Of a stretch of 64,000 nt of DNA, positions 50,837 to 63,507 are shown piece by piece. Under the pieces are notes generated by a model. The model was not told the origin of the DNA. It worked only from the letters and a program-made list of their open reading frames with translations, and ran no database searches. This DNA comes from a bacterium (lineage in GTDB: Bacteria > Omnitrophota > Gorgyraeia > Zapsychrales > Zapsychraceae). Both the position numbers and the translations under genes were made by a program. Numbering within the stretch: the first letter of the stretch is position 1; every line of letters starts with the position of its first letter. The stretch is from contig JAUIER010000021.1 in NCBI GenBank assembly GCA_030429765.1, positions 1,619-65,618 on the forward strand, in the 5' to 3' direction.

Positions 50837-51108
50837 GCCCCTATACTAGCGGATAACAGGCGGGAATGTAAGTATTTTTTAGAGTGATAGGCGATCTGGA
50901 GACCAATCCTACTTGCGGCTTGGTGCATCCAAAATCGCACCGGCCGGGTATCTTCAGCCGCGAAACGGGAATGTCAGACTTCAAACTAGATCTGTTCTTA
51001 AAAAGGAAATGAATCGTCCTTATTCCACGTTCCGCCAGATAATTGTTGCTACTTTGCGGATACAATGCTATATTCTTACTGGTAAGATTTTCGAAAAGGA
51101 GGTTTTTC

Positions 51109-51372
51109 ATGATTAAGTTCTCAACTACTAAACTAACGTCTAAGGGGCAAGTAGTCATCCCGGAAGATATCCGTGAACGGCTCGGCCTGAATCCGGGAAC
51201 CCAGTTCATCGTGATGGAGCAGGACGATGCCATTATTTTCAAGATCATCTCTCCCCCGGCCAAAAGTGAGTTGACCAAACTTCTAAAAAATGCCAGAAAG
51301 CAGGCTCGTCAGGCCGGCCTCAAGTCCTCTGACATTGATAAGGCCGTAAAAAAAGTCCGCGCCAAGAGATGA
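51109..51372 (+). CDS. AbrB/MazE/SpoVT-family antitoxin (VapB-like)
   Basis: Starts MIKFSTTKLTSKGQVVIPEDIRERLGL (swapped-hairpin fold), with an AAAGGAGG RBS. Overlaps the toxin gene by 4 bp. Confidence 0.7.
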   Translation: MIKFSTTKLTSKGQVVIPEDIRERLGLNPGTQFIVMEQDDAIIFKIISPPAKSELTKLLKNARKQARQAGLKSSDIDKAVKKVRAKR

Positions 51373-51776
51373 ATGTCATTTTGGATACCAACGTTTTCGT
51401 GTCCGGACTGTTTTTTAAGTCCGGCCCACCTGGCAAGATTATGGATGCCCTCATTGCTGAAAGATTTAAATTGATTATCTCCCCTCCAATCTTCGCCGAA
51501 TACCTTCGAACAGTAGCTGCGTTGAACGCAGATTACCCACAGATAAATACAGAAGCCCTTTTAGATATAGTATTTCTTAAATCTATTCTGTACGAACCGA
51601 TGGAATTATCCGAACCAGTCACTGCCGACCCCAAAGATGACATGTTTATTGCCTGCGCTTTAGCCAGTAAATGCGGATTGATCGTCAGCGGCGATAAACA
51701 TCTTCTCAATGTTTCTGGACATCAGGGCATCAAGGTTTTAAAACCACGCCAGTTCTACGATGAACATCTGAGTTAG
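51369..51776 (+). CDS. PIN-domain toxin (TIGR00305-type)
   Basis: ILDTNVFVSG ... ADPKDDMFIACA ... IVSGDKHLL acidic PIN residues. Confidence 0.7.
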   Translation: MNVILDTNVFVSGLFFKSGPPGKIMDALIAERFKLIISPPIFAEYLRTVAALNADYPQINTEALLDIVFLKSILYEPMELSEPVTADPKDDMFIACALASKCGLIVSGDKHLLNVSGHQGIKVLKPRQFYDEHLS

Positions 51777-51887
51777 TCCTCCCATATCGATTTTTAAATT
51801 CTATGATGGTAAGTATTGTGTCGAGCTTTGAGCGCACATTCCTGCCAATGATATAATTCTTATAAACTCATTCACAGGAGTGACCCC

Positions 51888-52931
51888 ATGCTTTTCTCTA
51901 ACCAATTCATCAATCTATTCTCGGAACTCACCCAAAGTCATCTAAAGAACCAAATCGCATTCCTTAAGGTCGAGAATCAAATCCTCCGCAACAAGTGTCC
52001 GTACAAACGCATGGTTTTAACCGACAAGGAACGGAACCGGTTGATCAAATTCGGCCACCCTCTCGGTGGAGATATCAAACAGATTATTTCCATCGTTAAT
52101 TCCAGAACCTTTTACGCCTGGATTCAAAAACAACGCAACCCTAGTTATGGGTCTCAAAGGCGGGGCCGGCCACGTAAACTCACCATAACCATTAAAGAAC
52201 TGATTGTTGAAATGGCAAAGCGCAATAAATGGGGTTACACGAAGATTATCGGTGAACTGAAAAAACTGGGTATTATCAAAACCTCAAAAACGTCGGTTAA
52301 AAACGTGTTGATGGAGTATGGAATTGATCCGTTAAGCATCCGATCTGAAGGATCATGGGACCAGTTCTTAAAGCGAACCTTTCAAACATTATGGGCGTGC
52401 GACTTCTTTGCCAAAACCGTCTGGACTCCCCTGGGCCCCAAAATCTTTTACTGCCTCTTTTTTATTAATGTACGGAGTCGTAAGGTCCATATTGCCGGTA
52501 TAACGACCAACCCTAACAAACAATGGACCTTGACCCAGATAGAGAAACTTAAGTCAACATTTCAGGATGAGCTCGTTGAAAAAGCGGTCCTGATCCGGGA
52601 CCGAGACACTAAGTATTCCCATGAATTTGATAAATTCTTCAAAGATCAGGGCATCAAAGTTTTACCCACCCCCTACCGTTCACCGAATATGAATCCCTAT
52701 GCCGAAAGCTGGGTAGCTACGATCAAACGGGAATGCTTAAATCATTTTATTGTCCTGGGACGAGTGCATCTTGAATATTTGATCAGGGAATTCGTCAGTT
52801 ACTATAATCATCACCGGCCTCATTCGTCGATGAACAATGAACCGTTGACACAATACAAGAAGACCAAGTATGGAAAAATCCTCGCGAAGCCGGTGCTCGG
52901 AGGATTGATTCATGATTATTATATTGAATAA
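51888..52931 (+). mobile_element. DDE transposase/integrase (rve catalytic core with an N-terminal HTH); single-ORF IS-type
   Basis: The DDE-fold region (WACDF ... RDRDTKY ... ESW.ATIKRE) is typical of the rve family. Confidence 0.6.
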
Positions 52932-53093
52932 GTAATTATGAATTTCATTAGGAATTTATTTTACTACGGAAGGAGTGTATGCAAGACCCTCAATTTCAAT
53001 ATGAATATTCTTTTTCAATCGCAGAATGACCCTTTGTTTGTGATTCATCCCACCCTAAAATCCACATCAAAGCGGGTGAGCTAATTATTGTAC

Positions 53094-53249
53094 TCACCTC
53101 ATTCGAAAATTTTTAAAATTTTTTGGGTTACTACTGATATTTTGACACGGAATTTCTGCACCTACAGTGGCGCCAACATCAACTTGCGTTAATAAGCCAC
53201 CTACTCCTCCAGCCCCTTGGATTGATTGTGACAGGTCCAAGCCCCACAC
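53094..53249 (-). pseudogene. truncated RHS-core remnant (51 codons), a degenerate copy of the 5' end of the downstream RHS cassette
   Basis: Encodes VWGLDLSQSIQGAGGVGGLLTQVDVGA and then terminates. It is about 75% identical over roughly 80 nt to 54665-54744. Confidence 0.5.
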
Positions 53250-53375
53250 GAATAGGGGTATGCAAAATTTCGCCTATAAGCGTTTTTGGACTCACTTATC
53301 TTTCAAAGAACGAACCCGTTCTGGTGGGAACGGGGCAAACAACACGATCATTTTCTACTGACACGTATTACATTG

Positions 53376-53783
53376 TCATTCGCTTATTGTCATATTCTCT
53401 ATACTCTTGGGGTGCTCCGCTAACCATTGCACGTACCGTACAGGCTCTTCTTCCCATTTCTTAATTCTTCGTTTATTCCACCGATTTTCCAACTTCACTG
53501 TAATTTCATCGAATCTGCTAAGTCGATGAGTAATCACCTCTTTGCTGAATACTTTGGTTTGATCTAACTTTCGCCAATTTTCAATACCAATATTAGAAGC
53601 CTGGGCTTCCTGCATGATAGATAAAGCAATATTAACTTTTTCATCTACTAATTGATTGTTTAGCGTTCGCTGAATAACGAAGTAACTAGCTAATGCTAGC
53701 ACAAGCAATGTGGTGACTGCTAGCCTTCGATTCGACAAGCTATTCAATAACCTCTTTAATTTCAGTTTCCTCTTCTTCTCCAC
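53376..53783 (-). CDS. candidate RHS-toxin immunity protein (hypothetical, membrane-anchored)
   Basis: Sits immediately downstream of, and overlapping, the RHS C-terminal toxin ORF; N-terminal TM helix; AT-rich. Confidence 0.4.
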   Translation of the reverse strand: MEKKRKLKLKRLLNSLSNRRLAVTTLLVLALASYFVIQRTLNNQLVDEKVNIALSIMQEAQASNIGIENWRKLDQTKVFSKEVITHRLSRFDEITVKLENRWNKRRIKKWEEEPVRYVQWLAEHPKSIENMTISE

Positions 53784-54744
53784 AGCAACAATTCCATTCT
53801 ATAACTAACTTCCGGTGAATATTATTACTAGTTTTAGCATTTGCTCTAATTGTCGGCGACCCAGTTGTTGAGATTAATGGACCTGCACGTGTTTCTTCAT
53901 TAAATTGTACTGTATCATTAGGCCAAATTAAATCATCAAACCTTGCATAAAAGGCTAGGCCTTCAATTGTAATTCTACCCTTTGTTCCCAATCCAAAATC
54001 AGACGTCCTCCAATGATCTTCCATGCCTTTCAAAGATGAAGGTATTTTGCCGTGTGCATAGTACCAACGTTCCGTATAGTTAAACGTTTTGCCGTTATCA
54101 CGATTTCCCAAACTACCATAATTAGAAAGCAATTTATCTGTCGTAATATCGTTGTCGTTCTGATCTTTAATGTCTAAAGAATGCACTATTTTCTGAGCTA
54201 CTACACCATTATCCCTTTCATAATTCTCGGCTCCTTTTATAAGCCAGCGAATACCCCACCAAGCCAAACCACACTTGCCGGTCTTAATGCTGGACAGGTT
54301 CACATAGTTCAAAATGAACTTTGGCTTATACGTGGTTAATCCGTCTTTGTCAAAATTCTTTATAGGATCATTTAAAACGAAATTATAAAGACTTTGACCA
54401 TCCTTTACATCAATCGGATCCCTATTCAGCCATCTCCCCGTATCCGGATCATAAAACCTTAGCCCGTAATAGTACAGACCATAGTTATCATCCAGATACT
54501 TTGTACTGAACCGGTATGGATTCCCCGCAGCGACTGCGCCGCTGGCAAGGATAGAATTACCATAAGGATCGTATTCATAGTGTGCGTCTATCGACCCATC
54601 CGAATTGTCGATCAGCTGACCCACATTCCCATTGCCGTCATAGAGATAGGCGTAGGATTTCACCGCGCCTATATCTACTTGTGTCAGAAGGCCTCCGATG
54701 CCGCCTGCGCCTTGCATGGATTGAGAAAGATCCAGTCCCCACAC
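53740..54744 (-). CDS. orphan RHS C-terminal cassette: end of the RHS core (YD repeats, PxxxxDPxGL-like DKDGL) followed by an unknown toxin domain of about 190 aa
   Basis: YLYDGNGNV, YEYDPYGN, YYYGLRFYDPDTGRWLNRDPI and DKDGL motifs. GTG start with no upstream RHS repeats in frame. Confidence 0.7.
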   Translation of the reverse strand: MWGLDLSQSMQGAGGIGGLLTQVDIGAVKSYAYLYDGNGNVGQLIDNSDGSIDAHYEYDPYGNSILASGAVAAGNPYRFSTKYLDDNYGLYYYGLRFYDPDTGRWLNRDPIDVKDGQSLYNFVLNDPIKNFDKDGLTTYKPKFILNYVNLSSIKTGKCGLAWWGIRWLIKGAENYERDNGVVAQKIVHSLDIKDQNDNDITTDKLLSNYGSLGNRDNGKTFNYTERWYYAHGKIPSSLKGMEDHWRTSDFGLGTKGRITIEGLAFYARFDDLIWPNDTVQFNEETRAGPLISTTGSPTIRANAKTSNNIHRKLVIEWNCCCGEEEETEIKEVIE

Positions 54745-54893
54745 AGACTGGACTTCGTATTCTCGCCGGGTGTGCGTTTTTTTTGATGCCCTATATCACT
54801 ATCAAAGAACTGTATTATTTTAACAACTTATTAGATATATGTAAACAAACAGAATCGTGTTGGAACATAGCCAGCTATTCTTAAAATTATATT

Positions 54894-55616
54894 TCAACTA
54901 TTTAATTGAATATGCTGTTTTAATAATTTTGCCGCCATCCACGCTTCATGATGACAATGCCGAAACTTGTCCTTTGACCCACAAAAACAAAGCGTTTGTC
55001 TGGTTATTTCCTCCGAGGAATGAATAATATCTTGGTTTCGCTTCATTAGTGAGTTTATCGTTTCCAATACTAAAGTTTTCTTATTGCTTATCTGATTAAT
55101 AGTTTCTGCAAAACATTCCAATATGCCGGGATCACCGTGACTGTAATCTTTCCAGGCCCAATGACCATTTTTCTCAAAATAACTTTGAGCGTAAAAGAAG
55201 GGTATCACCAATATAGTAAGCAATTCCACTACTGTATAGTTAGCTGTCAGTTTAATCTTTTCTACGGCTTTGGGGCATAAACAAAGATCGCCTCTCGGAT
55301 TTACATGTAAATCGCCCATCGGTATTTTGCTTCTAACCGAAAATCTTTCTAAACGTTTCCCCGTTTCATATACTTTTGGAACAAAAAGGTCTTTTTTATA
55401 TTCAATTTTAATGTGGTACTTATCCTTAACATAATATGGGGACACCTGCTTCACTTGATCTGGAAAGATTGTATATTTTTCGGCGGCGGCTGGGTCATAC
55501 AGCATATCAAATTCCAGCTCACCATATATAAGTGGCAATCCGTTAATTTCATCGACCGTTAATCCAGAAAATCGTTTATGTAACCATTTTATTTCCTCAC
55601 CTGATATTGTTTTCAT
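54894..55616 (-). CDS. E2-like (UBC-fold) protein with a C-terminal SEC-C motif; candidate Cap2-like E2-only component of a CBASS operon
   Basis: The HVNPRGDLCLCP motif resembles the E2 HPN...G.ICL active site. The C-terminal CFCGSKDKFRHCH resembles a SEC-C motif. It follows the CD-NTase gene with a 3-bp gap. Confidence 0.45.
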   Translation of the reverse strand: MKTISGEEIKWLHKRFSGLTVDEINGLPLIYGELEFDMLYDPAAAEKYTIFPDQVKQVSPYYVKDKYHIKIEYKKDLFVPKVYETGKRLERFSVRSKIPMGDLHVNPRGDLCLCPKAVEKIKLTANYTVVELLTILVIPFFYAQSYFEKNGHWAWKDYSHGDPGILECFAETINQISNKKTLVLETINSLMKRNQDIIHSSEEITRQTLCFCGSKDKFRHCHHEAWMAAKLLKQHIQLNS

Positions 55617-55619
55617 GGG

Positions 55620-56831
55620 TCATTGAACCAAATGCCTCCCCGATGGCTTGGAATTTACAACGATAGGGCCGGTATATAGTGAATCTTCTATCTTGTTACT
55701 GGATATTCCCTCTATCCTTTCAAGAGATTTTGCGTTGATTCTCGAAGAGAAGCCGCTCCTTATGTCCTCTAGCAGTTCCTCTAAATCAACCGAGGCTCCT
55801 AACTTTTGAAAATCGGATTTAGCTTTCTCCAACCAGTTCCAAAAGTGCTTTTCAAGTTCGGGCTTCTTCAACCATTTGTCTGCAAAATCTTCTCCACCAT
55901 CAATTCTTTTCGGATTCGCTGGATTCGGCACCTTAGGAAATTCTTTGTTCACATAATTTCCCATATTAGACAGGATACTATTCATAGCATCATACAAATT
56001 CGATTCACCATTATATGCTTTCGCCGCCAACGTTGTGATAAGTATTGATGCGGGTTTAAGTTCATGGTTATCCTTAAACGTTTGATCACGATGCCGCTTT
56101 AATATTTGAACACAACGCTGAAGGGGTGTTTTCCACATAAATGTTGGCAATTCCTCGATATTTGCCGCTTCGTAAAGTTTGATACGTTCAGCAAGAAATT
56201 GCTCTGCTAATCTAGCCCTAGATTCAAACCATCTAGCATATCCTTCCGGATTACTGATTAGCCAGCGGTCACAAATCTGGTCATATTCCGGATGTCGATC
56301 ATCTGTAATGTTCACCGTTAAACCAGAAATGGCTTGAGATAAGCTTTCGCCTACCCCTGATCTAATCAAGTAATTTAGAATTTCTGCTCGTTTAGAAGAG
56401 TCCGCAGGGATACATGGTACTATATCCATATAAAAACTTAAATCGTCAGCATATTTTAATCGCCAGCAACGATGCTTTTCTTCAATTGGTGATTTTATCG
56501 AGTTGTAATCACGGTACGCCTCAATTTCTTTTCCAATAAGCCGTTTTAGATAGCATTGGGTATGCGTATGTGGAAAAATACCCTCTGTGAGTTCGCATGC
56601 TAAATCCAAGTCGTAAGGCGCATTTTCATCAACGGGATATGTAGCTGTTCCTAATCGAAACGACCCTTGAGGAAAAATATGTGGTTTGTTGATTTTACAA
56701 TTGGCCCCATCTCGTCTAAGCCATCTTGCCATATCTTCATATCTAGACCTTGCTCTTTCGTAAGCTGAGTCCGGCAACTCTAAAGACTCGGCTATTGACT
56801 CTAATATTTTGCTAATTAGTTGTTGTTTCAC
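55620..56831 (-). CDS. cGAS/DncV-like nucleotidyltransferase (CD-NTase, SMODS-type), CBASS cyclase
   Basis: GSFRLGTATYP...DLDLA pol-beta NTase motif (GS...[DE]h[DE]h) and a typical N-terminal helix (SAYERARSRYEDMARWL). Confidence 0.6.
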   Translation of the reverse strand: MKQQLISKILESIAESLELPDSAYERARSRYEDMARWLRRDGANCKINKPHIFPQGSFRLGTATYPVDENAPYDLDLACELTEGIFPHTHTQCYLKRLIGKEIEAYRDYNSIKSPIEEKHRCWRLKYADDLSFYMDIVPCIPADSSKRAEILNYLIRSGVGESLSQAISGLTVNITDDRHPEYDQICDRWLISNPEGYARWFESRARLAEQFLAERIKLYEAANIEELPTFMWKTPLQRCVQILKRHRDQTFKDNHELKPASILITTLAAKAYNGESNLYDAMNSILSNMGNYVNKEFPKVPNPANPKRIDGGEDFADKWLKKPELEKHFWNWLEKAKSDFQKLGASVDLEELLEDIRSGFSSRINAKSLERIEGISSNKIEDSLYTGPIVVNSKPSGRHLVQ

Positions 56832-56840
56832 TTTATCCTC

Positions 56841-57776
56841 CTAAAGCTTGTGTTCAGGTTCAAATGGATCGGCTTTATGATCCATAAATTTATTTTTGAA
56901 CAATGGTACGACGCTTCGACTAAAACTGGCCGCCTTGCTTAACAAATCTTTCTCCGACAATTTATCAAGTTCAAATAATTGGTCTGGAACTTTTGGATCA
57001 ACTCTTAACACATTATCTTCTCCCAATAGGAGTGATATTTGAGCGTTAACTCCCATACTTTGACCTCGCAGGGCTACTTGTATTGCTTGTTTTTTCCATT
57101 GCCACAGCCCGCCTCTGTTTAAATTCTCCGGCCTATGCACTACTTGGTCAGTGGTGCCGAGGCTCAAGATTCGTATTTGCTCCAAAGATATACCCAGAAA
57201 TGATATAGCTTCAACAACTCCAATCATTGAAGGATTATTTGCCCAAACGCCACCGTCGATATGTCGTATATGATCAATTTCAGTACATGCTGGAAAATAG
57301 GTTGGTGCGGCACTTGTTGCTAAGGCCACCTTCCACGCCGGGACTTTAAAATCCCTCCCCAATCTATCATGGTGAGCGGTTTTAAATAAGTACACGCCGT
57401 CATCTCCGATGTTATATGATGGAATTACTAACCTGTTACTACTCTCACCAAATAACCTGTCTCCAAAACAATTCGGATCTCTTAATGCCTCTTTTAACGG
57501 TTCTTGAGCATATTTGTTCCGAAATAAATTTGTTCGCTTGTTACCGAAGATTGATTTACCTTTATTTACATAAAAATTTACGATTTCTCGAGGATGAAGT
57601 CCCAACCCAAGACCAATTGCAATAATACCCCCGGTAGACGTTCCTAATATCAAATCAAAATGTTCACGAATTGAAATTTTTAGATCGTTTTCCCAGTGGG
57701 CTAACACAGCCGCTGAGAATAAACCTTTGATACCTCCTCCATCTAATGATAATATTTGAAATTTTTTGTCAGCCAT
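56841..57776 (-). CDS. patatin-like phospholipase (CapV-like CBASS effector)
   Basis: DGGGIKG oxyanion motif, GTSTG nucleophile elbow, and DGG catalytic Asp. Confidence 0.8.
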   Translation of the reverse strand: MADKKFQILSLDGGGIKGLFSAAVLAHWENDLKISIREHFDLILGTSTGGIIAIGLGLGLHPREIVNFYVNKGKSIFGNKRTNLFRNKYAQEPLKEALRDPNCFGDRLFGESSNRLVIPSYNIGDDGVYLFKTAHHDRLGRDFKVPAWKVALATSAAPTYFPACTEIDHIRHIDGGVWANNPSMIGVVEAISFLGISLEQIRILSLGTTDQVVHRPENLNRGGLWQWKKQAIQVALRGQSMGVNAQISLLLGEDNVLRVDPKVPDQLFELDKLSEKDLLSKAASFSRSVVPLFKNKFMDHKADPFEPEHKL

Positions 57777-57806
57777 TTCTCAAATACTCCAAACTGCTGT
57801 AGGTTT

Positions 57807-58100
57807 TTAAATCACTTCTCGTTGAAATGTCGTGTTTTTACTTTGTTTAGCAACTTTCTTAAATGCTGATTGCTGTTTTAAATCTCTACTGCTATTGACT
57901 GAGTCTTTCGTTTCAACTTCAATAATTTTCCGTTGTGTACCTTTTTTGGCAATAACGTCTGGCCGATATCCACCAAAAGTCTTAGGCTTAGAAAATCCGG
58001 GCACGTCGGCGCTGACATCATATCCTAGTTGTTGAAACTTGTCGGCAAGCTGCTTAACTTTACGGTTGTGCTTTCCTTGATTTGAACTATTTCGGGGCAT
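57807..58100 (-). CDS. small hypothetical protein with a possible PD-(D/E)xK nuclease-like core
   Basis: A ...GYRPDVIAKKG...IIEVETKD pattern (D ... E.K) in 97 aa. Confidence 0.3.
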   Translation of the reverse strand: MPRNSSNQGKHNRKVKQLADKFQQLGYDVSADVPGFSKPKTFGGYRPDVIAKKGTQRKIIEVETKDSVNSSRDLKQQSAFKKVAKQSKNTTFQREVI

Positions 58101-58713: not shown

Positions 58714-59646
58714 TTACCTTGCACTGTCTTTCTCCCGTGGGTGGGTCTTTTGGTGGGTTTTGCGTAGATCGGTGATATTTAAACGCACATAATGCTTGAG
58801 CGTGTCCAGCGATTCATGGCCCAATAGTTCTTTGACGTGGTAAATGTTGGCCCCGGCCCGGATCATTTCAGTGGTGCAACTGCGCCGGAACGTATGGCTT
58901 GATACCCGCACATCAAAATCCAAATTATCCGTATATTTCTTAAGCCAGTTTTTAATGATGTGATACGCACAACGGTTGCCCCGCTCCGTTACAAAAAGGG
59001 CTTGCTCACGGGGATTGCTTATCAAAAACGGCCTGATCCCGACTATGTAACTTTCCACATACCGTAAAGCCGTCTTGCCAATCGGCACGATACGGTCTTT
59101 ATTGCCCTTGCCATGCACCAAAGCCGTACCGTGATCAAGATTAACTTCTACCACATCAAGCCCCAACACTTCACTCACCCGTAAACCACAGGAATACATC
59201 AACTCCAAAAGTGTGCGGTTGCGGTAACCGATTAATGTTGTCGTATCAATGCTGTTAAACAACTGTTTTACCTGCGTGTGAGTTAGGACGTTTTGCGGTA
59301 GCAAGCGTGGCATCTTAACCCGCTTTAATGCTTTGGGAATATCCTTAAGCACATAACCCCGTACTGCCAGATAAGTCAGCCATCCCCGTACACTGTTAAT
59401 CCGAATATTCATGGTGCTGGGCTTTAACGGTAATCCTTTTACCGTACGCCAGTTTAATAAATGGGCGTGCCATGCGTCGATATGCCGGATATGGATTTGT
59501 TCGGGCGTATCAACCTGTTGGTACAATGTCATCCACTGGATAAACCCGTCCACCGACTTGCAGATTTTCTTAACGGTCATCTCGCTGTAATACTGCGCCC
59601 GCAGGTGTTGTAAATATTCCAGTTTTAATTCATCCAATGTCTTCAT
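58714..59646 (-). CDS. tyrosine recombinase/integrase (XerC/D-like)
   Basis: R...HxxR...Y catalytic residues (HTFRRSCTT ... LLGHESLDTLKHYV). Start reset to MKTLDELK so that it abuts the upstream recombinase. Confidence 0.8.
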   Translation of the reverse strand: MKTLDELKLEYLQHLRAQYYSEMTVKKICKSVDGFIQWMTLYQQVDTPEQIHIRHIDAWHAHLLNWRTVKGLPLKPSTMNIRINSVRGWLTYLAVRGYVLKDIPKALKRVKMPRLLPQNVLTHTQVKQLFNSIDTTTLIGYRNRTLLELMYSCGLRVSEVLGLDVVEVNLDHGTALVHGKGNKDRIVPIGKTALRYVESYIVGIRPFLISNPREQALFVTERGNRCAYHIIKNWLKKYTDNLDFDVRVSSHTFRRSCTTEMIRAGANIYHVKELLGHESLDTLKHYVRLNITDLRKTHQKTHPREKDSAR

Positions 59647-60555
59647 TGCCCCGGCCTTGTCTTTTTGTGTGTTTTGATCATATCCGTGATCCGTATCTGT
59701 AAGTATTGCGAAAGTGATTTCAATGAGGCGTGGCCTAACAACATTTGCAGCTGTACCGGGTGCGCCCCGTTCATCAGCATATGCGTGGCACATGCCCGTC
59801 TTAGACTATGCGCCGAAATACTCTTAAGAATGCCTGCTTCTTGTACATACGCCCGGATCATTTGATCCACCCGTGTCCCGCTGATTGCCCGCCCGTCTTT
59901 GGTCAACCACAACTCCGCTAAATCTTCTTTGTTGGCTATTAGTTTCTGACGGGCGTCGTTGATGTATTCTTTTAGCCAGCGTCTTGCGTGTTTACCTAAC
60001 GGCACCATCCGTTCTTTACGCCCTTTACCGAACACACGAATCCGGCCCCTTTCAAAATTTACGTCCTGCGTTCGCATGGATAAAAGTTCTCCTCGGCGCA
60101 CGCCTGTCGTATACATTACCTCAAGGATCGCCCGGTCACGCACCCCGAATACCGTTGTCGTGTCCGGCATGCTTAACAGTTGTTCCATCTCTTTTTGAGT
60201 CGGCACTGGCTGTAAATGACGATTAGCCCGGGGAATCGTTAATTGATCCGCCGGATTAAAAAAGATAAACCGCCCTTCCTCCAGAAAATCGTCTGATACT
60301 CCACAAATATCCGCTAACGCTGTTGACCGTACAACCCCGTTCAAAAATATGTCCCCGGTAACTTTCCAGATCGCTCAACTGCACATCAGCCAGACGGTCA
60401 CAGCCCGTACCGTTTAGATAGACCAGTAAATCCACAACCGCTTGTTGACGGAGGGTGACGGTTCTAACGCTGTAATTCTGTTGCCGGATCGAAGCGATAA
60501 ATGCTTGTAATTCTTCGACCCCGAATCCTGTATAGGGTGGTTTGGCTTTTCGCAT
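59643..60555 (-). pseudogene. second tyrosine recombinase, split into two ORFs by a +1 frameshift at a C4/G4 homopolymer (about 60335-60338); either a pseudogene or a sequencing error
   Basis: The N-terminal SAM-like domain ORF (60256-60555) and the catalytic-domain ORF (59643-60344) overlap. Removing one G restores ...HIFERVVRSTALADI... Confidence 0.6.
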
Positions 60556-60721: not shown

Positions 60722-63016
60722 CTAGGCTTTGAGTTCTTGGATATCAGTTAATCCTAATAGGAACTTCTCCCCGCTTTTACCCTGTCCTTCATACGCCAAT
60801 CGGTAACAGTAACGCATACCGTTACGCCCGGCCTGAACAATCACATACTCAAACTCGATTAACTCCCTTAAATGAATGTGTAACCGGGTATTGCTCCATC
60901 CCGTGAACTCCCGGATATCCCGACGGCTGAATGTTACACCTGATCGGCTAGGCGCCTCGTCTTTTAAATCTTTGATTTTATGCTCGATCATGTCATCTAG
61001 CTGGATCAAAAGGTCCCGGCTAGGCTGTGAGAGTTCATCCAACGACCTGCCCAAAACTTCATGGGCTAACTTGTTGGTAATCTCGATATCCACAATATCC
61101 ACTTCGATGAACGGAATGGAATTGCCGTTTTTATTTTCATATTTAACCTCTTTGACCATCTGCCGTAAAAAGGCCACTGTCTTTATTAAGTTCAAGTATT
61201 TTGGTTGATCTCGCCGGCTCTGTAACCGATCATCCCCGTATGTTAACTTATCGGCGTATGGATTCTTGACCGCCATGTTCTTTAACAACCGTTGAAAATT
61301 CCTGTGCCGTTTAATAACATTTTCAATTTGTACGTTGTGCGTTGGCCCATCGGATAAATGATTCTTCCGTTGGAAATTCAGGATTTTCCGGGTCTGCTCA
61401 CGGCTTTCATCAATGGACGTTACGAAAAACCGGGATTTGGTTTCAGGGTCTATTTTGGGGTTGGTCGTCGTTAAAAATACAGCTGTCGGCCCCTCAACCC
61501 TGTTTTCCATAGTGGTTAATTTCCCGGTCGCTAAATCCTTAATCGTGGATTCACTGGCAAGGCTCCTCGCACTGATTAAATTCCGTATGGCATAACTGGC
61601 GTCTTCGGCCCCGTCGCCTTCTTCCAATGCCAATACTTTGTGCTTCAATGATTGGGCGTCCTTATAGAACAATGCTTTTCCTGAAAGGCTCGTTAGCTTG
61701 CGCAAATCTTCTTCCGGGCAAAATGTACAGACCGCATCCTGTAAGGCTGTCTTGCCTGCCCCTGAACTCGACATAATCAATAACGCCAAAGGCACGTCTC
61801 TTTTACGGCTGGTCATAACAAGATACCCCAATAATTTGTTAGGCTCCTCACCTACGAGTCCGCACACTTCAAAATCCTTGATGATCTGCTCCATTAAATC
61901 GGGGCGCTTGCCGAATTCTTCCGCTTCCCTTTTCTCCCGTTCGCTCATACACTCTAAAACGGATATATCGGCCTTATCTCTGCCCGGCTGGTATTTCTCA
62001 CAAGCCACCATTAAACGGGTCACATCACTTTCGATGGTTTCAGGGGATTGAGCGAAAATCCGGCATATATCTTGGATCAATGCTTTGCGTGCCCTCGCCG
62101 TATAAAAATCCAAAGTATCCACGTGCAATTTCCCGGCATGCTTAACCCGTACCGTCGCCCTTAACCGCCTTGCGGACTTGGCGAGTCCAATCACCTGATA
62201 TTTCCGCTGTCCATAGCAGACCGATATATCCGCATCTGGATCACCGTCCGGATCGTCCACACGTTTATTCTGCAAACTTTCATTGATATCCGCATCCAAG
62301 AAGGATGTTAACTGCTCCCGCCCCTCAGCTATTAAATAGCTGTTGATGCTATGATCCATCGGCAACTGCCTGACTTGGCAGTTAATCGCATGGTCATTAA
62401 ATAGTTCGACAAGGTTGGTTTCCTGTCCGTTGCCGTTAACAATCATGATGTTGCTCACTCCACAGTCTTTAAAGAGTTTCGCATCTTCATGGCTAACTGA
62501 ATATTCTCCTACTGTTGCAACCACATTAAAGTAGCCTACACTGGCAACGCTTAAGGCATCTATCACGGATGATACTAGTACAATATTTGGGTACGTCTTA
62601 ATAACTCCCGTATTCCATAATCCAGAGGGTTGACTAGGCAAGTAAACAGGAGTTTCCTGTCCTGCTTTAGTACAGTAACCGCATAATGTCCTGATATTGC
62701 CTTCAAAATCATACACCGGGATAACCAGACAATTCTCAAACCGTTCTTCTGCTTTTGCATCTAAAATACCTGTCTGAACTAAATCATCAATAATCTGTCC
62801 CTTACGGGGTAATATCTGCCTTAATTGACCATCGGAATATCCAATGGCGTATCTATCCCATATCCCGGTATCGGTAATCCCTTGTTGATTAAGAAAGTCC
62901 CGTCCTTCGCTCGTATCGGCTAAATTCTTGGCATATACCGACACTACCTTGTCTAATAACTGCCTGACCTTTTCCTGAGAAACACAACTCTCCCTAATCT
63001 CCTGCTTACTTGTCAT
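60722..63016 (-). CDS. replication primase-helicase-like protein: toprim-like central domain plus a C-terminal P-loop (SF3-like) NTPase
   Basis: Walker A SSSGAGKT, Walker B VLALEEGD, a TTN motif, and a toprim-like segment with NGNG in place of DxD. Confidence 0.5.
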   Translation of the reverse strand: MTSKQEIRESCVSQEKVRQLLDKVVSVYAKNLADTSEGRDFLNQQGITDTGIWDRYAIGYSDGQLRQILPRKGQIIDDLVQTGILDAKAEERFENCLVIPVYDFEGNIRTLCGYCTKAGQETPVYLPSQPSGLWNTGVIKTYPNIVLVSSVIDALSVASVGYFNVVATVGEYSVSHEDAKLFKDCGVSNIMIVNGNGQETNLVELFNDHAINCQVRQLPMDHSINSYLIAEGREQLTSFLDADINESLQNKRVDDPDGDPDADISVCYGQRKYQVIGLAKSARRLRATVRVKHAGKLHVDTLDFYTARARKALIQDICRIFAQSPETIESDVTRLMVACEKYQPGRDKADISVLECMSEREKREAEEFGKRPDLMEQIIKDFEVCGLVGEEPNKLLGYLVMTSRKRDVPLALLIMSSSGAGKTALQDAVCTFCPEEDLRKLTSLSGKALFYKDAQSLKHKVLALEEGDGAEDASYAIRNLISARSLASESTIKDLATGKLTTMENRVEGPTAVFLTTTNPKIDPETKSRFFVTSIDESREQTRKILNFQRKNHLSDGPTHNVQIENVIKRHRNFQRLLKNMAVKNPYADKLTYGDDRLQSRRDQPKYLNLIKTVAFLRQMVKEVKYENKNGNSIPFIEVDIVDIEITNKLAHEVLGRSLDELSQPSRDLLIQLDDMIEHKIKDLKDEAPSRSGVTFSRRDIREFTGWSNTRLHIHLRELIEFEYVIVQAGRNGMRYCYRLAYEGQGKSGEKFLLGLTDIQELKA

Positions 63017-63180: not shown

Positions 63181-63507
63181 ATGAAATACGCTAAAAACAT
63201 TAAAAAATTACGTATCAAAGCAGGGTTATCCCAAGATGAATTCGCCCGGCTTTTAAAAGTCCCCCAACCAAATGTCAACCGCTGGGAAAATGGTGTAATT
63301 ACCCCCTCCTTAAAAACCATTGAAAAAATGGCCCAAGTTCTACAAGTCCCGTCAGATGCCATCCTGTTTAACAAATCCGACAAAGAAAAAATCAAAACGT
63401 CCAGTAAAGCCTTAACAGCACGCCTTAAGAAAATCGAAAAACTATCCTATACTGATCAACAAGCCATATTCCAAATCATTGACGCCTTCCTCAAATCCAA
63501 AAAGTAA
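63181..63507 (+). CDS. XRE-family (Cro/CI-type) HTH transcriptional regulator
   Basis: MKYAKNIKKLRIKAGLSQDEFARLLKVPQPNVNRWENG HTH; AAGGA RBS. Confidence 0.75.
   Translation: MKYAKNIKKLRIKAGLSQDEFARLLKVPQPNVNRWENGVITPSLKTIEKMAQVLQVPSDAILFNKSDKEKIKTSSKALTARLKKIEKLSYTDQQAIFQIIDAFLKSKK

Follow-up and report, generated by a model that had tools for sequence, protein, structure and literature searches.

Within a 64,000-nucleotide (nt) stretch of an Omnitrophota contig (JAUIER010000021.1, positions 1,619 to 65,618; assembly GCA_030429765.1), hereafter called the window, we analyzed a small cassette of the Rhs (rearrangement hotspot) type, in which the terminal part of an Rhs core is fused to a C-terminal toxin domain (CTD), or tip, with a candidate immunity gene downstream. 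The cassette is probably an intact, 5'-truncated Rhs tip with its immunity gene, located where an integrated plasmid-like element ends on its recombinase side, and it is followed by the vestige of another tip. The cargo of this element would be a CBASS (cyclic oligonucleotide-based antiphage signaling system) operon. Coordinates below are positions in the window unless a contig is named.

An Rhs cassette with a 5'-truncated core

The three open reading frames (ORFs) reported in a preliminary description of this DNA were all recovered on the minus strand, i.e., a 334-amino-acid (aa) ORF with a GTG start (53740-54744), a 135-aa ORF (53376-53783) and a 51-aa ORF (53094-53249). The claim that the first of these joins a 5'-truncated Rhs core end to an unrecognized domain was borne out. 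Its residues 1-136 (54337-54744), running from VWGLDLSQS to DKDGL, form the core tail: the TIGR03696 Rhs_assc_core model matches residues 58-136 over model positions 1-76 of 76 (E 1e-21; 77.3 bits against a cut-off of 32.5), and the final 110 positions of NF041261 RHS_core (1152-1261 of 1261) align with residues 25-136. The core ends in DKDGL, with a lysine where the DPxGL cleavage motif has a proline. The remaining 198 aa and the stop codon (53740-54336) make up the CTD, which had no family match in Pfam, NCBIfam or PADLOC. The GTG does lie at the start of the conserved core stretch, as had been described; however, the frame stays open for a further 17 codons 5' of it, and these are not Rhs-like.

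No YD-repeat shell precedes the core in the 334-aa ORF. A tblastn search of the 64-kb window with four full-length RHS proteins detected RHS-like sequence at only two places, both of them tails, in agreement with the earlier statement that no full-length rhs gene is present in the window. The closest kin of the core tail are in the metagenome-assembled genome of Candidatus Brocadia sp. WS118 (68-74% identity), where they lie in the interior of long RHS ORFs; scans of the genome, metagenome and protein collections yielded nothing more than 74% identical, and exact-sequence look-up of the toxin ORF, in its 334-aa form and the 325-aa form held by NCBI, returned no contig. Since VWGLDLSQS sits within long Brocadia RHS ORFs that carry three different tips with their immunity genes, the window ORF is truly 5'-truncated. 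As in orphan modules, a shortened core fragment homologous to full-length cores is thus joined to a variable tip.

Neither the 334-aa frame nor the 135-aa frame is interrupted, and a terminator-like hairpin with a T-run (53315-53334, minus strand) directly follows the immunity stop codon. The toxin ORF has no strong ribosome-binding site, and its N-terminus is not hydrophobic (maximum hydropathy 1.09). Its leader (54745-54893, minus strand) holds a promoter-like site (54845-54817) 73 nt upstream of the ORF, and the proximal ~50 nt of this leader are similar to the linker found ahead of the RHS tail in a Brocadia contig described below.

A second core remnant and the junction

The second tail, an 80-nt remnant (copy 2; 53170-53249, minus strand), lies inside the 51-aa ORF. 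Strict local alignment pairs exactly 54744-54665 with 53249-53170, and a Brocadia RHS protein matches copy 2 in tblastn at E 3e-10, far beyond chance. The remnant encodes 26 conserved residues, as had been reported, although its frame does not stop there but continues through 24 unrelated codons to a stop. Copies 1 and 2 are identical at 58 of 80 nt, and their codon differences comprise 15 synonymous and three non-synonymous changes. This bias indicates that both copies diverged under protein-coding selection and are not a recent local duplication.

Upstream of the junction, the leader of copy 2 (53250-53314, minus strand) bears a weak in-register likeness to that of copy 1, the alignment score being reached by 15 of 500 shuffles. 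The ~50 nt upstream of the junction in the window likewise align in register with the Brocadia contig (score reached by 6 of 500 shuffles). The 5' boundary common to both copies and Brocadia, with ~50 nt of like flank, points to descent from a common element-borne cassette and not to independent breakpoints; in sequence terms, such a cassette appears to be the best explanation of the shared boundary.

A perfect 7-bp inverted repeat, TCCAGTC-N8-GACTGGA (54731-54752), is centered on the GTG and the junction. Its arms recur at the Brocadia junction with one G-T pair and are not kept in copy 2; it could be a recombinase site or a chance occurrence, and we give it low weight by itself. Two other accounts of these boundaries found no support. 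Truncation of copy 2 by the neighboring insertion sequence (IS) is not supported, as the sole candidate terminal repeats end the IS at 52939, 230 nt from the end of the remnant. Nor is there support for the VWGLDLSQS junction as a recombination boundary among full-length Brocadia rhs paralogues, which show no identity step there.

The cassette follows a primase and recombinase backbone

From roughly 51 kb to the window end, GC content drops from ~0.52 to ~0.40, and that of the CTD and immunity gene is 0.38-0.39 against 0.52 in the core genome. Read on the minus strand from the window end, the region comprises a partial replication-relaxation-like gene, a divergent helix-turn-helix (HTH) gene, a primase-like gene, two tyrosine recombinase genes and a CBASS operon, followed by the Rhs cassette, the remnant, an IS element, a VapBC-like pair and genes of the core genome. 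The HTH, primase-like and tyrosine-recombinase genes thus stand in the same order as their homologues at other loci, and the core fragment and tip lie downstream of the recombinases, though with a 4-kb CBASS insertion in between. The element extends beyond the window end, where an overlapping contig (L166) adds just ~305 nt.

The HTH regulator (63181-63507, plus strand) is divergent from the primase gene and similar in DNA sequence to the HTH region of Brocadia contig PHFX01000015 (L070). The primase-like replication protein (764 aa; 60722-63016, minus strand) contains a DNAG_N domain and is 64% identical to its Brocadia counterpart; a scan of viral contigs with this protein gave no match. Tyrosine recombinase A (59646-60555, minus strand) is divided between two frames that part near 60288, by comparison with a 311-aa Brocadia homologue, reflecting either a frameshift, which would make it a pseudogene, or a sequencing error. 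Tyrosine recombinase B (58714-59793, minus strand) matches Phage_integrase at E 9e-37 and is 74% identical to the protein encoded at L070 8750-9676 and 28% identical to Janthinobacterium XerC.

The whole backbone is colinear with L070, in which the two recombinases are 70% and 74% identical to those of the window. There, ~120 nt beyond recombinase B, an ATG begins a frame that encodes a signal peptide and a 40-aa linker and runs on into VWGLDLSQS, entering it at the same nucleotide junction as in the window. The CBASS insertion is absent from this syntenic locus, and the end of the CBASS E2-like gene occupies the window region that matches the Brocadia signal-peptide-coding part. Judged from this alignment, the CBASS operon has taken the place of the signal-peptide-coding part in the window. 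The Brocadia fusion itself (L070 9798-10113), in which a Sec signal peptide and linker precede the RHS tail, indicates that a tip, whether carried or displaced, could still undergo export in the form of a small protein.

A long RHS ORF that has a tip of its own lies on this strand of the same Brocadia contig, ~40 kb upstream. The upstream and downstream tails are 73% identical over their first 66 nt and 94% identical at nt 67-113, a step consistent with a recombination breakpoint near +80, where copy 2 of the window ends. Brocadia locus L009 (2747-10894) contains, past the main RHS tip and its immunity gene, genes for an EEP-family nuclease/phosphatase, a TIR-domain protein, a trypsin-like peptidase, a further integrase-family protein and a DUF488 protein, and this set looks like island cargo.

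The same module lies beside Rhs and CdiA tips in other genomes

Homologues of the primase-like protein were found in 42 plasmid or megaplasmid records, at ~30-37% identity over most of the length (about 36% over 92%). The contexts that we inspected are the top hits and not a random sample. At six other loci a homologous backbone lies between a main rhs or cdiA gene and orphan tips, or on a free plasmid with tips. In Ralstonia solanacearum Po82, an RHS gene (1725 aa) is followed by primase, Xer and a 475-aa RHS fragment that has 1088 nt at 95% identity in common with the main gene; in Ralstonia GMI1000 the order is RHS, a primase remnant, an intact Xer and a second RHS fragment. Janthinobacterium lividum has an Rhs gene (2317 aa) with its immunity gene and then an HTH-primase-XerC unit; four pairs of small ORFs, among them one for an Imm26 protein, come next, and there is another primase remnant as well. 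In Paraburkholderia, CdiA and its immunity gene precede two HTH-primase-XerC units in tandem. Behind each unit lies an orphan tip, in one case a HYD1 ADP-ribosyltransferase and in the other an HNH nuclease. Both of these orphans begin with a cdiA fragment from the same position, behind a leader that is 88% identical between them.

In Escherichia coli SCU-113, genes for VgrG, a chaperone and Rhs are followed by two 7.1-kb units at 94% identity, each consisting of a core fragment, a HYD1 tip, an immunity gene, SymE/HTH, primase and XerC. After each XerC comes an 84-87-nt fragment encoding the last 27 RHS-core residues, and the 84-nt core fragments are 77-84% identical to the resident core. Such a fragment is a poor substrate for RecA, which leans towards site-specific recombination; the crossover may be the work of the Xer-like recombinases or of RecA. 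Of 5426 complete E. coli genomes, 56 contain primase-XerC DNA, always in the chromosome and at a median of four places per genome. At the SCU-113 locus (L174; NZ_CP051765, 2384000-2426988), copies of ISEc1 (ISAs1 family) adjoin short RHS core-end fragments.

The sixth locus is a circular plasmid of 11,289 bp in Lonsdalea populi that carries the backbone. One of its ORFs encodes an RHS core end (NPVGWIDPFGL) and then an endonuclease tip with an NTF2 immunity gene, and the plasmid also carries a second, HNH, tip. In the E. coli and Lonsdalea units alike, an HTH gene and a SymE-family gene are divergent from the primase gene. The module was also found on Leptospira plasmids together with partition genes, which fits its being a replicon.

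The toxin domain belongs to a small uncharacterized family

The preliminary description suggested that the toxin domain may be a new family. No match to a known family was found in Pfam, NCBIfam or the Protein Data Bank (PDB). The domain is not unique, however. A word-index protein search with the toxin retrieved only itself, and a profile search added just one protein, whereas a HMMER search of 1.84 billion representatives returned 48 proteins beyond the query at E<=0.001 (best 3e-16). One of these (P0013), a long repetitive protein, looks spurious and was dropped, leaving 47 credible distant homologues. A Pfam scan of 40 family members gave hits to nine curated families, with one member each (best E 0.006) and none shared between members, and a profile search of PDB sequences with the family gave nothing below E 0.44.

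In every homologue the CTD is C-terminal. It comes right after the DPxGL core end in RHS-fused homologues (e.g., P0009, P0012, P0022, P0029, P0033) and is preceded by eCIS_core (PF13699) in P0018, P0027, P0034 and P0040, while seven short homologues (P0008, P0016, P0017, P0023, P0026, P0030, P0041) consist of a Sec signal peptide, a short RHS tail and the CTD. This modular pattern, with a constant C-terminal domain behind varied carriers, is the signature of a polymorphic-toxin tip, and the window CTD is accordingly classed, by homology, as a true tip from a small uncharacterized family.

Alignment of 40 CTD sequences revealed six invariant residues (G23, Q48, E89, D107, G120 and W181) and a W[ND]CC motif, and every invariant position is kept in the window CTD. 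An AlphaFold2 model of the window CTD is all-beta, with a predicted local distance difference test score (pLDDT) of 91.7 and a predicted TM-score of 0.88; a model made from the single sequence was unusable (pLDDT 31.5). Foldseek comparison of the model with the PDB gave nothing at E<=0.001. The only significant structural neighbor of the model (m76732566e8ee) is an uncharacterized 337-aa protein of Chrysochromulina ericina virus CeV-01B (Foldseek E 4e-6, TM 0.61).

Two loci of the family deserve mention for their contexts. P0029, an RHS protein of 616 aa that is truncated at its 5' end, is encoded immediately after a large serine recombinase (L162, 682-4179), so that this locus places a second type of recombinase beside a truncated rhs gene. 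On a planctomycete chromosome (L078, 5345-7065), a frameshifted RHS fragment is followed by a 201-aa CTD-family ORF (P0044) and then by a gene for a signal-peptide protein. Compared by eye, the latter resembles the protein encoded downstream of P0022 (L080), with VVYWxAMxIG and ALPKL motifs in both.

The immunity candidate and the probable site of action

The 135-aa ORF occupies the immunity position, as had been described, with an intact frame that overlaps the toxin ORF by 44 nt. An identical protein exists as an NCBI record, and no family match was found for it in Pfam, NCBIfam or PADLOC. It has a basic N-terminus and one transmembrane segment (LAVTTLLVLALASYFVI), with a hydropathy maximum of 2.40 at residues 21-37, and by these features the candidate immunity protein is membrane-anchored and probably faces the periplasm. 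The genes downstream of two other family members (L078 and L080) encode proteins with N-terminal signal peptides, so that all three immunity candidates examined have an N-terminal hydrophobic anchor or signal peptide.

Within the CTD family, the cysteine of a 'DC' motif and the second cysteine of the 'CC' motif are both present in 33 sequences, both absent from five and mixed in two, one of the latter being the window CTD (Fisher 3e-5, uncorrected for relatedness). A further pair, C22 and C183, is jointly lost in one sequence. These covarying pairs suggest two disulfides. Together, the cysteine covariation and the anchored or signal-peptide-bearing immunity candidates support, with moderate confidence, a toxin that would fold and act outside the cytoplasm.

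Cargo and neighboring genes

The CBASS operon (54894-58100, minus strand), between recombinase B and the Rhs cassette, is complete. It encodes an AHJR-like protein with a nuclease fold, a patatin phospholipase as effector, a CD-NTase and an E2-like protein with a SEC-C motif. Identical CBASS DNA is present in a Logan contig (L081; SRR24442552) that ends 30 nt into the RHS tail. Beyond the cassette, the IS element (51853-52939, plus strand) flanks the remnant and contains an IS3/IS481-like transposase gene (51888-52931); its proposed terminal repeats are weak. A MazE/PIN (VapBC-like) pair (51043-51776, plus strand) lies between the Rhs remnant and the core genome.

Discussion

Displacement of tips via circular intermediates and an episomal reservoir of tips were proposed by Jackson et al. 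(2009; PMC2935791); neither the proposed circular carriers nor a recombinase linked to them was ever identified (PMC2935791). We tentatively put forward the HTH/primase/tyrosine-recombinase module as this vehicle. It would be a small plasmid bearing a short 3' core fragment, a new tip and an immunity gene, which inserts at the 3' core of an rhs or cdiA gene, possibly site-specifically via its Xer-like recombinases; the window cassette would be one junction product, and its tip a new disulfide-stabilized toxin fold acting outside the cytoplasm. We rate this proposal as a whole at a little under an even chance.

From the anatomy of the region, its homologies, its synteny and its recurrence, we infer how such an element might integrate, in which direction tips might be displaced, and where and how the toxin might act. 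A circular replicon composed of core fragment, tip, immunity gene, HTH, primase and recombinase would recombine with a resident rhs or cdiA gene at its conserved 3' core. In the resulting order, the resident gene would come first, then the new tip and the immunity gene, the backbone of the element, the core fragment and, last, the old tip. The resident gene would then read into the new tip, while the old tip would be left behind the backbone, its 5' boundary set by the core fragment of the element. Tandem units and decayed primase remnants would be the expected products of repeated events.

Under this scheme the window cassette could be either the tip that the element brought in or a tip that it displaced. 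Having no YD shell and no signal peptide, the window tip could not be delivered alone. It would instead be a spare, its 408 nt of core homology allowing re-attachment, with the immunity gene protecting the cell. Work on the activation of orphans in Salmonella has reportedly been done by Koskiniemi and colleagues (2014).

Several observations weigh against this proposal. The full-length rhs gene and the second end of the element are both absent from the window, recombinase A appears frameshifted, and the 4-kb CBASS operon separates the recombinases from the cassette. A simple serial-insertion model predicts a backbone remnant between the immunity gene and copy 2, and a search there found none. 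The similarities of the upstream flanks are weak, as their shuffling scores show, and the module contexts come from top hits only; on the Leptospira plasmids, toxins are absent from the neighborhood of the module. As regards the site of action, the homologues fused to eCIS_core have no obvious route to a periplasmic target, and the covariation test ignores phylogenetic non-independence.

The preliminary description regarded the region as footprints of serial tip displacement by recombination. The truncated tip and the second core remnant agree with that view; its setting does not, in that the cassette follows an HTH/primase/tyrosine-recombinase backbone, recurring in six loci, and not an rhs gene. 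In its classical form, this view takes the region as an orphan array that remained after tips were displaced through RecA at an rhs locus, with the primase/recombinase element and the CBASS operon having landed nearby without any mechanistic link. In its favor, orphan modules that include core fragments have good precedent (Jackson et al., 2009; PMC2935791), the low-GC region is a mosaic in which an IS and a VapBC-like pair also occur, and the flank similarities are weak. We nevertheless consider this explanation unlikely: no rhs gene lies upstream within the window, the same backbone adjoins the same junction in Brocadia, and the order of backbone then core fragment is repeated in six further loci from four genera, two of them tandem (Paraburkholderia and E. 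coli SCU-113) and one a free plasmid.

Two further explanations concern the state of the cassette rather than its origin. If the ORFs were decaying pseudogenes with no current function, the missing shell, signal peptide and strong ribosome-binding site, the GTG start, the frameshift in recombinase A and the clearly vestigial copy 2 would all be accounted for; yet both frames are uninterrupted, the invariant residues of the family are all kept, the CTD fold is predicted with high confidence, a terminator-like hairpin closes the gene pair and the differences between copies 1 and 2 are mostly synonymous, which together make a dead remnant very improbable. Least probable of all, in our estimate, is that the ORF is a small toxin gene that stands by itself and uses its own start. 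The seven short homologues with a Sec signal peptide and RHS tail offer a precedent, in the Brocadia counterpart the tail is in frame with a linker, a signal peptide and a start codon ahead of it, and the window has a promoter-like site 73 nt upstream. However, the window ORF lacks the hydrophobic N-terminus that those proteins have, and where Brocadia encodes its signal peptide the window has the end of the E2-like gene.

The element-borne cassette that we favor can be set beside four known systems. Like the Rhs orphan modules (PMC2935791), the window has a truncated core fragment and a variable tip, then an immunity gene, with vestigial fragments further downstream, and in both cases the tip can rejoin a full-length gene by way of the homologous core. 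Unlike those modules, the window cassette follows a primase/tyrosine-recombinase backbone, with no main rhs gene upstream, and a candidate carrier is seen. The rAID-1 clusters of Bacteroidales (Ross et al., 2019; 10.1101/471110) are defined by a recombinase more than 44% identical to BF9343_RS08045 and an array of immunity genes; they hold immunity genes only, without a primase-type replication gene, and no toxin-gene core fragment has been reported in them. The window resembles them in its Xer-like tyrosine recombinases, likened here by type only, its co-directional low-GC genes akin to those of interbacterial toxins and its repeated intergenic sequences, and its recombinases lie 5' of the cassette on the same strand. 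Unlike these immunity-only arrays, it holds a toxin and immunity pair, a primase-like gene and a core fragment.

Islands at tRNA genes enter a conserved gene at its 3' end, for which they bring a substitute. The proposed element would likewise have a copy of the target 3' end beside its recombinase and would leave the displaced native 3' end at its far side. In contrast to such islands, its replacement 3' end would change the gene product by bringing a new toxin, so that insertion diversifies instead of being neutral, and site-specific catalysis is only proposed. The short toxins with a Sec signal peptide and an RHS tail share the core tail and the CTD family with the window ORF, which differs from them in having no signal peptide. 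In the open-access literature that we searched, no description was found of a primase/Xer element beside Rhs or CdiA tips, a result that holds for that literature and does not amount to proof of novelty.

How Rhs and contact-dependent growth inhibition (CDI) toxins acquire their tips has been a question since C-terminal displacement was described. The recurrent candidate found here is a small replicon with an Xer-like recombinase, lying between current and discarded tips in several phyla and classes. If the proposal is true, toxin diversification, orphan arrays and the co-travel of tips with defense systems, here CBASS, would share one mechanism, which is testable in E. coli. Separately from this, the tip defines an unannotated toxin family with a confidently predicted fold.

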